Virus record (IMG/VR): IMGVR_UViG_3300047321_000298
Coordinates: 32,001-96,000 of that record
Reading direction: 5' to 3' (one strand)
From: a virus
Taxonomy: Duplodnaviria > Caudoviricetes
DNA length: 64,000 nucleotides
In this document: positions 2,653 to 57,084 of the stretch, one piece after another
Layout: every line of letters begins with the position of its first letter
Numbering within the stretch: the first letter of the stretch is position 1
Program-made: the position numbers and the translations under genes
Notes under the pieces: model-generated
Told to the model about the DNA's origin: nothing
What the model saw: only the letters and a program-made list of their open reading frames with translations
The model's database searches: none

Positions 2653-3162
2653 CTAGTTGGTCGCTTCCGCTTTCAACTGAGGGCCGAACGACAGGGGCAG
2701 CGGGTCGGCTGCTAGCTCGGTGTTCTTCTGCTCGACCCACAAGCGTAGCTGCGCGGTGTTAGGTGCATCGTAGGACAGCGTGAGATGCGCACGGTAGTCC
2801 GGGAACGAGTGCTGCAACCCTTCACCCAGCAACTCGGAATGCAGCCGCTGTAGGTCCGGAGAATCGATGCACGCAACGAGCACCGGCCGCTGCTTGTGAT
2901 CGAGCCACACCTGCAGGCTAGTCACTGATCCCTTGCACACGCGATCTGCTGGCGGCTTCACACCGAACGGAAGATCATGCTTGTGGTAAAGCACCGTCAC
3001 GTGAAAATCCGTGGAGTGGTTCGGCTTGAACGGTGCACCCGCCAGAAAGTTGCGCAGACTCAGGATCGACTGCTCATCCGGATCGGCCCACACGTAGAGT
3101 CCGGAGCCCGAATCAGCCTCCCGGATTTGATCGTAGAGAATCTGCGCTTCTATCTTGAACAT
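2653..3162 (-). CDS. acb1: 2H phosphoesterase, Acb1 / T4 gp57B-like anti-CBASS nuclease
   Basis: Two HxT motifs (FHVTVLY, AHLTLSY); SGLYVWA and VWLD...VLVACIDS...HSFPDYRAHLTLSY follow the T4 57B pattern. Confidence 0.8.
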   Translation of the reverse strand: MFKIEAQILYDQIREADSGSGLYVWADPDEQSILSLRNFLAGAPFKPNHSTDFHVTVLYHKHDLPFGVKPPADRVCKGSVTSLQVWLDHKQRPVLVACIDSPDLQRLHSELLGEGLQHSFPDYRAHLTLSYDAPNTAQLRLWVEQKNTELAADPLPLSFGPQLKAEATN

Positions 3163-5846: not shown

Positions 5847-6968
5847 TTATGCGTACTGCTGCAGGATGTCGGAGAGGCGTTCCATGTTCGTGTGCAGCCG
5901 GAAGTCTTGCCGCTCGCGTGTCGTGTGCACGTAGCCAGCCGGACGTGTCGAACCATCGAAGAACACCAGGTACAGATACTTGAAGCCCTTGTGCAGGGCC
6001 CCGCGAGCCTTGCGCGTAATCTCGTCTGTCACGCTTCCCCTATCGGCCGGGGGCTCGCTTGTGAGGTCGATCACCAGACCGCGCTTTTCGATCCACAGAT
6101 CAGGCGCGTAGTCGCGTCCTTCCGAGCGATACGTTGGGCCGGATGTATCGATAGATTGCGCAGCGATTCCCTCAGTCAGGAGCCACGGAATCGCCACCTT
6201 TTGGGTGCCAACGACCAACCACGAAGCGCCGCCCGAATCGAGCCGTTGTGGGGCGTTTTTGAAGGCCGCACGCAGCGCTTCGACGGGTTCCAGAGGCGCG
6301 ACCGGCAGCGCCTTTTTCTTGATACGCACGGGCACCGGCAGATCGTCTTCAACTTCGATCTTCAGGTTGTGTGCTGAGTCCCTGAGCTTTTCCCGCACCT
6401 CCCGCCGTTGGCTCGAACTGGTGCGTTTGCCGTTGCTGCGTTCTAGCTCGTTGCGCCGGTTTGATTCCACGCGTTTGGCTATCGCTTCCGGACGTGATCG
6501 CGGATCGACCGATGTACCGTTGGAGCGTTCAAGCTCGCGATCCATGATCATCTCTTTGTACGTCTTCGAGCGACGCAGCGCGCGGCTTCGGTTTCTGAGT
6601 TCCGGCCGCTGCGCTACGTTCGTGTACTTGCCGCCTGATCGTTCTAGCTCGTTGCGTCTGCGCGTCTCGATCTTCGCCGGGTCTTTCCACGAGCACGCAG
6701 CAGAGCAGTAGCTGATGTACTTCAGTGCGCGTTTATCGAACCGGACCGTTTCGTTGCAGCCCGGAGTCTTGCACGTTGATCGCGCGTTAGGAAACAGGTG
6801 CGTGTAGAACTCAAGCTGATTGAACCGTGAGCCCAATGCGTCCTGCAATTCACTAAACAGTTCCGCGTCTATACGGTTGCGCAGCCATGCACTGAATCCA
6901 CCTGGTCCGCTAGGTTTGGATAGCTGCAGCAGCCCCCTCACATCCTTTATAACAAGTTTCTGGTCCAT
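5847..6968 (-). CDS. Putative free-standing homing-endonuclease-like protein (Zn finger, ELERSxG repeats, degenerate PD-(D/E)xK-like C-terminus)
   Basis: CKTPGC...YCSAAC; three ELERSxG repeats; YAPDLWIE...LVIDLTS; inserted in the structural module. Confidence 0.5.
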   Translation of the reverse strand: MDQKLVIKDVRGLLQLSKPSGPGGFSAWLRNRIDAELFSELQDALGSRFNQLEFYTHLFPNARSTCKTPGCNETVRFDKRALKYISYCSAACSWKDPAKIETRRRNELERSGGKYTNVAQRPELRNRSRALRRSKTYKEMIMDRELERSNGTSVDPRSRPEAIAKRVESNRRNELERSNGKRTSSSQRREVREKLRDSAHNLKIEVEDDLPVPVRIKKKALPVAPLEPVEALRAAFKNAPQRLDSGGASWLVVGTQKVAIPWLLTEGIAAQSIDTSGPTYRSEGRDYAPDLWIEKRGLVIDLTSEPPADRGSVTDEITRKARGALHKGFKYLYLVFFDGSTRPAGYVHTTRERQDFRLHTNMERLSDILQQYA

Positions 6969-54629: not shown

Positions 54630-54666
54630 AAAAAAGGGGAGTCGGATTTTAGTTTCCGCTCCCCTT
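54630..54666 (-). terminator. Intrinsic terminator closing the RNA cluster
   Basis: AAGGGGAGCGGA...TCCGACTCCCCTTTTTT. Confidence 0.8.
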
Positions 54667-54780
54667 GCTATTTTCTTTCTTCTGGACACTTCATAGTCAA
54701 ATGTGCAGGAGAAAGAGCGAATGCAGAAATCGTAGCTGAATCTGCATCCGCACTTCGGACGTTAATCCCAATCACATAGA

Positions 54781-54963
54781 GCAAGTCATCAAGGCTAGTT
54801 ACGATAACAAGAAAAGCCGACCCTCTACCGCTGAGGTACTCACCTCCCAAGATCACTTCAGCCGACAAATGATCTAGGGCAGGTGAGACGGGATTCGAAC
54901 CCGCGTCTTTCGACTTGAACCAGTGCTCTCATCCATTGGGTGCACTGGCAACCTTCCGCCTGC
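54781..54963 (-). ncRNA. Circularly permuted tRNA-like RNA 2 (Y-RNA-like)
   Basis: T arm GCGGG-TTCGAAT-CCCGT, then CTCACCT pairing with downstream AGGTGAG, then TA and D arm CCTC-AGCGGTA-GAGG; outer stem GCAGG..AAGGTT / AGCCTT..CTTGC. Confidence 0.7.
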
Positions 54964-54986
54964 TTTAAACTGCGATTGCTTAATAC

Positions 54987-55280
54987 AATGAGATTTGGGT
55001 AATACGATCAATGAAAGTTGCCGCTCGCTGCCGCACGTCTACCAATTCCGTCACCTCTGCACCAAACACGCTGCCATACTCAAAACCGGGTTATCGGGAA
55101 CCGGCTCTGATTAGAGCAGACGACCCAAACTTTTCCCAAGAAAAGATCGCTACCGTGGGAATCCACCCCCGTCGAGAAAGGTGGCACGACTACATACAGC
55201 AGTGTGTTTGGTGCAGAGGGGTGGAGTCGAACCACCACTGAGCTTCTACTATCAACGATAACTATAACGATTTCCCATTT
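54987..55280 (-). ncRNA. Circularly permuted tRNA-like RNA 1 (Leu-like D arm, internal CCA)
   Basis: T arm GGTGG-TTCGACT-CCACC + CCTCTGC-A-CCA (55209-55236) precedes GCAGAGG-TG-ACG-GAATTGGTAGA-CGT (55035-55060); 16-bp perfect inverted repeat. Confidence 0.72.
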
Positions 55281-55289
55281 ATCTCAACT

Positions 55290-55937
55290 CTATAATTCAA
55301 TACTTTTTGAAGCGTACCGTCGTTTAGCCGCGAGTGACATATTAAGCCGCGCCTGTTCGCTGTGAACTCTTCCTCGGTTCCCCTTCCCGGTCATGCCGCG
55401 TCGTTGACCTTCCGACATGTTCATGCGGGACTGTTCAGTGTGGACACGCCCAAGGTTCAGCCTGCCTCCCATGCTAGGAGCCTTACGGCCCGCCGCCATG
55501 TTTCTCTTAGACTGTTCCGTGTGTTTATATCCACGTTCACGATGCTGCCAAGCCTCAGCCATTTTCCGTCGCGCTTCTGCGTCGTGCATATCGCCGCTGC
55601 GTCCCTCACCGCCGTCTGTCATATTCGCTAAACACCCGGTGCCGTTGTTGCGCCGACCGTAGAAAGCTATCGTGTTGATTTCACAGCCAAACGCCTGTTT
55701 CTCCGTTAGCTCCGTGGCCTCATACTCAATGTGAATTCGCTTACCTTCGCGAATCGCCTTGCGTATGATGTGGTTCTTGTAACTTGGTTTGGCTAACAAC
55801 TCAGGCTTCAAATGATTTCTAGCACGATTTGCCTTTCCTTTTCCGACGTAGAAGGGTAGCTCTTCATCATCCACTCTGAATTTATAAACGTAATATATTC
55901 GGTGTCTATCAAAGGGCTTCCCGTTCTTTCTCGGCAT
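55290..55937 (-). mobile_element. GIY-YIG homing endonuclease with NUMOD3 repeats
   Basis: YYVYKF...FYVGKG...R GIY-YIG; HTEQSKRNM / HTEQSRMNMS / HSEQARLNMS. Confidence 0.88.
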
Positions 55938-56208: not shown

Positions 56209-57003
56209 TTAAACCTGGTTGCTGGCTGGCGGATTACGCAGCGGCTCAAGGATCACTGCAATCAGGTCGCGGCCGATGTTCTGCGTCATCACAGGCACCG
56301 AGTTCGCGCGGGTCCGAGCCTGCTTAACAGCCGTGATCAGTTCGTCCAGAGTCGCGATAACCTGCGCCTTCTGGATTGCGGTCGTCGCGCCCGACACGTT
56401 TTCCTGCGTGAACGTGCCGATGATCTTGTCGCTGGTCACTTCCTTGACCTGTGCCGGGTGCTTGTCCGAGTGCGGGTACAGGACCACGGGCACAGTCTGC
56501 TTTTCGGTCTTGGTCGTGATCGACGGATGTGCTGCCTTCCACGTACCGGCTTGTGCCGCGTTGGGGTCGATGCGCCAATCCTTCGATGCGTCCAGCGTCG
56601 GGATTTGCATCGCGAGCTTGCGCAGTTCGCCCAGACGCACTTCCAGACCCATCAACTCATCGACCGGCACATTCTCTGCGAATGTTTGTCCACGGAATTC
56701 GATGTTGGCGAGAGCGGTCGTGTTGGTCAGGTTCTTCGACGCCAGAACGTCTTCGGCCTTCGCCCAGTAGCTCAGGAAGTAGTCCAGAGTCGTGAGCACC
56801 GTTGTCGGCAGCGTCTTATCCTGGCGCGCGGCCTTTTCGAGGTCTTCGTTGTTCGGATCGTCACCGAGCAGCTTCAGGGTCTTCGTGAAGCCCGTGAAGT
56901 AGTTGTCACCCTTTTCAAATTTCGTCAGGGTGTCCTTAGCCATCGCGTCGCGCGAATTTGTTGCCGTCTTTTCAGCGGCCAACAGTTCATGAAGTTGAGC
57001 CAT
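56209..57003 (-). CDS. Conserved-looking helical phage protein (MAQLHELLAAEK... family)
   Basis: Resembles a widespread phage/bacterial hypothetical family (recalled, not searched). Confidence 0.7.
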   Translation of the reverse strand: MAQLHELLAAEKTATNSRDAMAKDTLTKFEKGDNYFTGFTKTLKLLGDDPNNEDLEKAARQDKTLPTTVLTTLDYFLSYWAKAEDVLASKNLTNTTALANIEFRGQTFAENVPVDELMGLEVRLGELRKLAMQIPTLDASKDWRIDPNAAQAGTWKAAHPSITTKTEKQTVPVVLYPHSDKHPAQVKEVTSDKIIGTFTQENVSGATTAIQKAQVIATLDELITAVKQARTRANSVPVMTQNIGRDLIAVILEPLRNPPASNQV

Positions 57004-57084
57004 GTGTGTTTGTATGAGCAAGAGTTATGGGGCCTTACACTTCTTATTTACTGGAGCGTCCACGTTTCCGCTCGATTATTTTAG

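Follow-up and report, generated by a model that had tools for sequence, protein, structure and literature searches.

What kind of RNA is encoded by the permuted transfer RNA (tRNA)-like element at positions 54,781–54,963, on the minus strand, of a 64,000-nucleotide (nt) stretch of phage DNA (IMG/VR record IMGVR_UViG_3300047321_000298; hereafter the window), and is it a Y RNA, as an earlier note made from the sequence alone had suggested? The window comprises bases 32001–96000 of a complete phage genome (245.5 kb, with terminal repeats) related to the Ralstonia jumbo phage phiRSL1, and the element adjoins a cluster of ten tRNA genes. The reading favored here, with a probability of roughly 55%, is that the element forms one domain, termed domain B, of an approximately 670-nt phage non-coding RNA located downstream of a gene for a DUF7873 protein, and that this domain serves a scaffold RNA as its tRNA-shaped handle. 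That the element is a real and conserved tRNA-shaped RNA domain can be held with near certainty.

Domain B spans 54769–54978 and, like all parts of the RNA described below, lies on the minus strand. Its limits follow from RNAalifold applied to the window and phiRSL1, and the minimum free energy structure of the surrounding 676-nt intergenic region closes the domain separately. The outermost helix, which lies outside the coordinates given in the earlier note, pairs the 5′ strand CAATCGCA (54978–54971) with TGTGATTG (54776–54769); pairing is kept in phiRSL1 (L001), where the strands read CAATCTAA/TTAGATTG, and in the viral contig IMGVR_UViG_3300030503_000315 (L010), where they read CAACTGCA/TGTGGTTG. 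Inside this helix, an interrupted helix seen both in the sequence and by RNAalifold joins a 5′ strand at 54963–54950 (GCAGG, a CGG loop, and AAGGTT) to a 3′ strand at 54796–54781 (AGCCTT, a GATGA loop, and CTTGC). Within it, GCAGG (54963–54959) pairs with CTTGC (54785–54781) and AAGGTT (54955–54950) pairs with AGCCTT (54796–54791). This helix between the 5′ and 3′ flanks had been proposed in the earlier note; it covaries, the first part reading GTTCG/CGAAC in phiRSL1 and the second CACCCT/AGGGTG in phiRSL1 and TCGAGT/ACTCGA in L010. A 7-base pair (bp) hairpin with a 15-nt loop, CCAGTGC/GCACTGG (54948–54920), separates the outer helix from the anticodon-stem equivalent, and is found as CCATGGC/GCCATGG in phiRSL1 and as GGCAC/GTGCC in L010.

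The permuted tRNA body starts with GTCGA, the 3′ strand of the anticodon-stem equivalent, and a 5-nt variable region, AAGAC, ending in C48 (together 54914–54905), and continues into the T arm, GCGGG-TTCGAAT-CCCGT (54904–54888). The 7-bp acceptor stem and its cap (54887–54839) enclose a 14-nt loop: CTCACCT (54887–54881) and AGGTGAG (54845–54839) pair 7/7, and the cap consists of CCC/GGG (54879–54877 with 54848–54846) and AGATCA/TGATCT (54875–54870 with 54855–54850). In phiRSL1, the acceptor strands are CCGCCGT/ACGGCGG. The acceptor of the window copy has no free 3′ end and carries GCCC in place of N-CCA; among 28 relatives, 15 have N73-CCA after the acceptor 3′ strand. The segment at 54838–54816 then supplies U8 and A9 (TA, 54838–54837), the D arm CCTC-AGCGGTA-GAGG (54836–54822) with A14, G15, G18, and G19, G26, and TCGGC, the 5′ strand of the anticodon-stem equivalent. 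The latter, GTCGA/TCGGC, forms 5–7 bp (54914–54910 with 54820–54816) and is found with differing sequences in nearly all loci. The T arm, the 7/7 acceptor pairing, the CCC/GGG and ATCA/TGAT cap, the TA, and the D arm had all been recognized in the earlier note, and each is present at these positions on the minus strand. A single strand, UUAUCGUAAC (54807–54798), that is identical in phiRSL1 and L010 links the anticodon-stem equivalent to the outer helix. Its core recurs across the family: ATCGT occurs in 23 of 30 family RNAs (11 expected), and TCGT occurs 85 times as opposed to an expected 49 ± 7. In L010 (4368–4872), the acceptor-cap hairpin of domain B holds an insert of ~490 nt with an intact HNH-endonuclease-like open reading frame (ORF) of ~157 amino acids (aa), and the flanking stem strands still pair (CTCCGCC TCACTGT ... 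ACAGTGA GGCGGAG).

The 183-nt element folds at −70.8 kcal/mol (z = −2.9; none of 200 shuffled sequences is equally good), and the folding z of the whole 676-nt intergenic RNA region is −10.3. RNAalifold recovers every helix from the window and phiRSL1, with 58 pairs, of which 18 have compensatory double changes and none is broken. A covariance model of the module, R1, with 89 positions and 21 pairs, was built from 17 modules including that of the window, and 29 matches were aligned to it. In this alignment, 94.6% of pair cells contain standard pairs, compared with 58.1% in shuffles (0 of 500 reach the observed value), and pairing drops to 39–47% when the partners are slid by 1–3 columns. The acceptor and T stems are 100% paired in the 29 relatives, and all seven acceptor pairs covary. 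Covariation in homologues, a point raised in the earlier note, is seen both in the comparison with phiRSL1 and in the wider family. R1 scores the window site at 75.5 bits, the sole strong match in the 245.5-kb genome (the next is at 36 bits); this value is partly due to construction, because the window copy is among the seed sequences, and members outside the seed score 36–65 bits. Since the R1 alignment was fitted to the structure, a signal outside the model was sought in the Levitt pair 15:48, which R1 does not contain: it is G:C in 14, A:U in 13, and another combination in 1 of 28 sequences, the window having G15:C48. Pattern scans for more close relatives, sought for the outer helices, returned phiRSL1 and one near-identical contig from viral sequences and only three copies of the L010 phage from metagenomes.

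Two other accounts of the conserved stretch were rejected. A 66-aa ORF with a TTG start lies over the site, but the substitutions are paired and compensatory, and nothing is annotated there in phiRSL1, which argues against a coding reading. A decayed tandem tRNA duplicate is likewise rejected as the present state of the element, owing to the covariation. As the origin of the module such a duplicate is plausible, because junctions of tandem identical tRNAs match R1 (e.g., L020:6595–6668, 48 bits).

The window copy contains U8, A9, A14, G18, G19, G26, A44, G46, and the T loop TTCGAAT, a set that makes up a full class-I tRNA core. With the elbow and core nucleotides kept (U8–A14, G15–C48, G18/G19 with the T loop, G26–A44, and G46), the RNA should adopt the L-shape of tRNA; without an anticodon loop and without a free CCA end, it can be neither charged nor decoding. 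Neither ARAGORN nor the Rfam tRNA model makes a call at domain B. A decoding tRNA is rejected on three structural features, namely the lack of a 7-nt anticodon loop, the capped acceptor, and an anticodon-side stem that runs into further helices. A two-piece (permuted) transfer-messenger RNA (tmRNA) is rejected as well, given that pair 3:70 is G-C rather than G-U, that GCCC stands in place of CCA, and that there is no tag frame and there are no pseudoknots. The element could also be viewed as a precursor that yields a working molecule through cutting and rejoining or through assembly, whether from a permuted tRNA gene or as the tRNA-like portion of a two-piece tmRNA. The N73-CCA of the 15 relatives, an A-CCA in the neighboring domain A (see below), and a weak match to the permuted beta-proteobacterial tmRNA model of Rfam (24.4 bits, cut-off 84) point in that direction. 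The lack of an anticodon loop, the continuation of the anticodon-stem equivalent into helices, the G-C pair at 3:70, the missing tag frame and pseudoknots, the absence of a tmRNA call by ARAGORN, and the pairing of GCCC into a closed hairpin all oppose it, and the precursor explanation is considered extremely unlikely.

The upstream neighbor of the RNA is the DUF7873 gene (56209–57021, minus strand; PF25283, E = 5.5e-65), whose true start is probably the ATG at 57003. In all 33 viral loci found via the protein, a same-strand permuted module directly follows the DUF7873 stop codon; 30 of these were recognized by R1 at ≥36 bits and three by direct parsing, which was needed because large insertions occupy the acceptor loop. 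The same adjacency and strand are observed in all 20 cyanobacterial chromosomal loci and in five of five additional metagenomic loci whose flanks were long enough, taken from a profile search that returned at least 2,641 DUF7873 clusters at 50% identity. Overall, the same-strand linkage holds in 58 of 58 testable loci, a count that covers clear family members (DUF7873 E up to ~1e-68). No other protein family is common to the neighborhoods of the RNA. In phiRSL1, both tandem modules occupy the unannotated gap between ORF269 and ORF270, and ORF270, the DUF7873 homologue, ends directly before the RNA. In one viral contig (L040:3031–3036), the DUF7873 frame has a single in-frame stop where relatives have Ser, which could be due to decay into a pseudogene, to recoding of the stop codon, or to an error of sequencing.

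An RNA that always lies on the same strand right after its gene, with a terminator at its end and often with a stem-loop after the stop codon, might act not in trans but in cis, as a 3′ element of the DUF7873 mRNA that stabilizes it, signals its processing, or regulates its translation. In the window, however, a 648-nt GIY-YIG/NUMOD3 homing-endonuclease-like ORF (55290–55937, minus strand; Pfam NUMOD3 7e-7, LEM-3 GIY-YIG 3e-4) intervenes between gene and RNA, and the RNA is nevertheless fully conserved. An RNA of 200–600 nt with a complete tRNA tertiary core far exceeds the needs of a stabilizer, and its loops take insertions of 150–490 nt while the core is kept. A purely cis-acting role is accordingly judged very unlikely. 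The endonuclease ORF is absent at this place in phiRSL1, and its 3′ end in the window contains a weak sigma-70-like site (55366–55339).

In Calothrix, the DUF7873–RNA pair stands alone among ordinary chromosomal genes. This placement bears on the idea that the RNA needs no dedicated protein and acts in infection as a free-standing decoy or sponge for a host tRNA-binding factor (RNase P, a modification enzyme, the CCA-adding enzyme, or a defense nuclease recognizing the elbow or acceptor of tRNA). The intact elbow and core nucleotides and the position next to the phage tRNA cluster would suit a decoy, as would the published finding that TruB, DusA, and RNase P act on YrlA RNAs, a class of bacterial Y RNAs (PMC4201824). 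The presence of the gene–RNA unit in cyanobacterial chromosomes outside prophages, on the other hand, means that its role is not phage-specific, and a decoy without an anticodon loop could not divert anticodon nucleases. A decoy also leaves unexplained the strict DUF7873 linkage, the conserved helices that have no tRNA counterpart, and the UAUCGU motif of the conserved single strand, and it is regarded as improbable.

The central question is whether the RNA belongs with the Y RNAs. YrlA RNAs have T, acceptor-like, and D stem-loops that mimic tRNA, often occur in tandem, and are found in phages; they carry a GNCGAAN0-1G motif near the 5′ end that is thought to contact Rsr, the bacterial Ro60, and a same-strand Ro60 gene within 4 kb served as the criterion for their assignment (PMC4201824). 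As a true YrlA-class Y RNA, the window RNA would bind Ro60/Rsr supplied by the host or the phage and tether it to an exoribonuclease, and DUF7873 would be a mere neighbor. The order of modules and the stem formed by the 5′ and 3′ flanks are the same as in YrlA (PMC4201824), and YrlA is the best non-tRNA match in Rfam. The YrlA search proposed in the earlier note nevertheless gives 30.1 bits for the window against a gathering score of 69, with an alignment spanning model positions 23–85; phiRSL1 scores 32 bits, and the 33 related records all stay below the threshold, the highest at 42.8 bits. This failure is given limited weight because tRNA-like RNAs beside Rsr in Calothrix, which are likely Y RNAs, score 37–47 bits and also fall below the cut-off, which therefore appears conservative.

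The Ro-binding motif was quoted correctly in the earlier note, in agreement with PMC4201824, but the look-alike GGCGGAAG that it singled out departs from GNCGAAN0-1G. At the same position, phiRSL1 has GTTCGGCAC and L010, the next relative, has CCCGTCGAG, so that the site evolves like an ordinary helix strand. GNCGAAN0-1G is absent within the 120 nt upstream of the window module, and it occurs in 1 of 27 family members as compared with 1.15 expected by chance, whereas each of the Rsr-adjacent Calothrix RNAs has a GGCCGA(C/A)GA-type motif. In one Calothrix chromosome (L071:420–1060), a tandem array of four tRNA-like units upstream of TROVE bears this motif in a stem standing in for the anticodon arm; matches to TROVE there fall in two separate open frames of 316 and 295 aa, and the gene may be split in this strain.

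A search of the complete 245.5-kb phage genome for the rsr gene, suggested in the earlier note, finds no TROVE, DUF2828, or DUF7788 gene. TROVE is present in 0 and DUF2828, which we take to be Ro-like, in 2 of 12 complete phage records with the RNA, leaving 10 of 12 without a Ro-like gene. Since a phage host could supply Rsr, cyanobacterial genomes were used as a cleaner test. In 401 sampled genomes of this kind, of which 27 carry DUF7873 and 53 carry TROVE, the two occur together in five (5/27 versus 48/374; Fisher p = 0.38), which is no enrichment. DUF2828 is found in none of the 27 DUF7873-positive genomes, and 22 of the 27, each with the DUF7873–RNA unit, have no Ro-like gene at all. Together with the DUF7873 linkage in every locus, these results leave assignment to the YrlA class improbable, and domain B RNA is probably independent of Ro60. 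Of the Y-RNA-like character proposed in the earlier note, the YrlA-type module order and the tandem arrangement stand, and the identity through a Ro60 partner is not supported.

Further tRNA-like RNAs were observed near Ro-like genes in other phages. L012, which also has a DUF7873 RNA, contains two non-permuted tRNA-like RNAs (6430–6700) ~0.9 kb upstream of a same-strand 547-aa TROVE ORF; these units have paired acceptor ends, D and T arms, G-CCA on the first, and an insert of ~65 nt in place of the anticodon arm. L069, the phage record of L022, has a second permuted module (2960–3110; 59 bits with R1) with G-CCA after the acceptor and its own closing helix, TGCGGAT/ATCCGCA. A 497-aa ORF with DUF2828 and DUF7788 (L069:3951–5444) follows 0.9 kb downstream and may represent a Ro-like protein that has a Y-like RNA of its own.

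Domain B is likely one part of a highly structured RNA of ~670 nt that is predicted to end at an intrinsic-terminator-like hairpin. The earlier note had described the element as the second of a tandem, and this is borne out: domain A (54983–55293) contains a first permuted module at ~55236–55035, with a T arm at 55236–55220, an acceptor CCTCTGC/GCAGAGG that carries A-CCA and a 152-nt insert, and a Leu-type D arm. An ARAGORN "tRNA-Asp (anticodon atc)" at 55209–55293 on the minus strand overlaps domain A at its T arm and 5′ closing helix; lacking support from the Rfam tRNA model, it is probably spurious. The stem that the earlier note had called terminal does consist of the 5′ and 3′ flanks on which domain B sits, but it is not terminal, as the RNA extends on both sides. 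Many family members carry a single module of the domain-B type and others, including this phage, add an upstream module with a Leu-like D arm, so the domain-B type is the common core.

Downstream of domain B, a hairpin with the stem ATGCAGA/TCTGCAT (54747–54721) displays in its loop CAGCUACGAU (54738–54729), which is complementary to the conserved strand UUAUCGUAAC, AUCGUA facing UACGAU. The stem changes to TCCAGGGA/TCCCTGGA in phiRSL1, with the loop motif unchanged; in L010, the loop reads CGGAUAAG, which would allow pairing to that strand in a shifted register (CUUAUC). From this complementarity, a tertiary contact may form between UUAUCGUAAC and the hairpin loop. The annotated start codon of phiRSL1 ORF269 (L001:4002) and a GGAGGAG box fall inside the conserved hairpin downstream of domain B; at the corresponding position the window reads ATT and has no ORF. 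The likely 3′ end of the RNA, as read from the sequence, is a hairpin, GGGGAG...CTCCCC, followed by T6 (54664–54630). A consensus terminator scan did not pick up this hairpin, probably because its stem is bulged, and comparable terminator-like hairpins follow the RNA in other loci. The datasets listed for the window stretch and its phiRSL1 homologue are rhizosphere, soil, and plant metagenome DNA runs, with no RNA run among them.

In the scaffold reading preferred here, the RNA would possibly be co-transcribed with the DUF7873 gene and end at the intrinsic terminator near 54630. Its permuted tRNA body consists of the variable region, the T arm, the hairpin-joined 7-bp acceptor, U8–A9, the D arm, and an anticodon-stem equivalent made by the flanks, and two further long-range helices enclose this body. 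The tRNA elbow would be presented to tRNA-binding proteins, and the flanking helices and conserved single strands (UAUCGU) would bind a dedicated protein, for which the protein encoded upstream, DUF7873, is the best candidate. Such an arrangement would follow the logic of Ro60–Y RNA particles with Ro60 itself left out. The tolerance of the closing loops for a 152-nt insert in domain A and for the ~490-nt HNH insert in domain B of L010 fits a design that depends on the elbow and core but not on the acceptor tip.

A bolder version of this proposal holds that DUF7873 and the RNA form a self-contained ribonucleoprotein, parallel to but independent of Ro60–Y RNA and common to many phages, jumbo phages of the phiRSL1 type among them, and to bacterial chromosomes. 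The AlphaFold model of the DUF7873 protein (pLDDT, the predicted local distance difference test, of 90) shows long helices and a long β hairpin whose tip carries an invariant DKHPAQ. In such a particle, DUF7873 would contact the parts without a tRNA counterpart (outer helices, UAUCGU strands), perhaps via this hairpin tip, and one or two tRNA-shaped heads would dock the particle onto tRNA-recognizing machinery. This extension is put forward only tentatively and is considered unlikely as it stands. Searches for relatives of the protein gave little purchase: Foldseek of the model against the PDB returned nothing at E ≤ 0.001, a wide VIA structure search gave 3kdq, a protein of unknown function, as its best match (Z = 9.0; root-mean-square deviation 7.1) followed by generic helical hairpins, an ESM Atlas search found only DUF7873 itself and unnamed phage clusters, and there is no PHROG, NCBIfam, or PADLOC family and no PDB sequence match for DUF7873. 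Such failed structure matches do not establish a new fold.

Several points weigh against the scaffold reading and its protein partner. No known RNA-binding fold corresponds to the DUF7873 model, and the median isoelectric point of the family is 6.2, a near-neutral value that does not favor a general RNA binder. Gene adjacency does not amount to binding, and the 58/58 linkage is that of clear family members. In the window, the endonuclease ORF sets gene and RNA ~0.9 kb apart, so that co-transcription is not assured. Three RNA-bearing phage lineages have a same-strand Ro-like gene 2–4 kb downstream (TROVE in L012; DUF2828 in L013 and L016), which speaks for the YrlA reading; lying within the published 4 kb, these genes would make all three loci count as YrlA candidates. 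Finally, R1 gives 51–66 bits to the tRNA-like RNAs beside Rsr in Calothrix, and the tRNA-like module alone therefore does not separate the two classes. Direct binding of domain B RNA by DUF7873, as suggested by gene order, is accordingly treated as a possibility of which we are doubtful.

The RNA family is absent from Rfam 15, and literature searches on phage Y RNA and on permuted tRNA returned nothing on it and no mention of DUF7873. It apparently represents a large, undescribed RNA family that has the tRNA-mimic design of Y RNAs and is tied to a different protein. Y RNAs have so far been defined by their Ro60 partner. Should the pairing prove physical, scaffold RNAs shaped like tRNA would represent a general solution that serves more than one protein, and DUF7873 would gain its first functional handle. 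A conserved non-coding component is also added to the tRNA-cluster region of jumbo phages. The idea is directly testable, since phiRSL1 is cultured and infects Ralstonia solanacearum.

Permuted arrangements of tRNA parts are known from several systems. In the permuted tRNA genes of Cyanidioschyzon merolae, the 3′ half precedes the 5′ half and the two are joined across the acceptor ends; these genes mature to decoding tRNAs with an anticodon loop, which domain B does not have. The tRNA-like domain of two-piece tmRNA (RF01850, RF04321) shares with domain B the order of T arm, acceptor 3′ strand, loop, and acceptor 5′ strand, as reflected in weak model matches, and differs in that domain B lacks G3-U70, CCA, a tag frame, and pseudoknots and has a full D arm. 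The non-permuted tRNA-like Y RNAs, namely Yrn1 of D. radiodurans (PMC4201824) and the RNAs of the Calothrix L071 and phage L012 loci, resemble domain B in mimicking the elbow without an anticodon loop, in occurring as tandem copies, and in their presence in phages with tRNA clusters. Their acceptor ends are free and a protein-binding stem, with a Ro-type motif in L071, takes the place of the anticodon arm, whereas in domain B the acceptor is capped and both RNA termini lie on the anticodon side. The closest known relative in design is YrlA (Rfam RF02553; Chen et al. 2014, PMC4201824), which has the same progression from T arm to closed acceptor to D arm on a flank-made stem, is often tandem, is found in phages, and contains the tRNA tertiary nucleotides, including a covarying Levitt pair. 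The window RNA departs from it in its model score (30 bits versus 69), in having neither GNCGAAN0-1G nor a Ro60 gene, within 4 kb or phage-wide, and in its linkage to DUF7873. It also departs from YrlA in overall build, domain B being one domain of a longer RNA that adds another tRNA-like domain with a different closure, further helices, and the UAUCGU motif.

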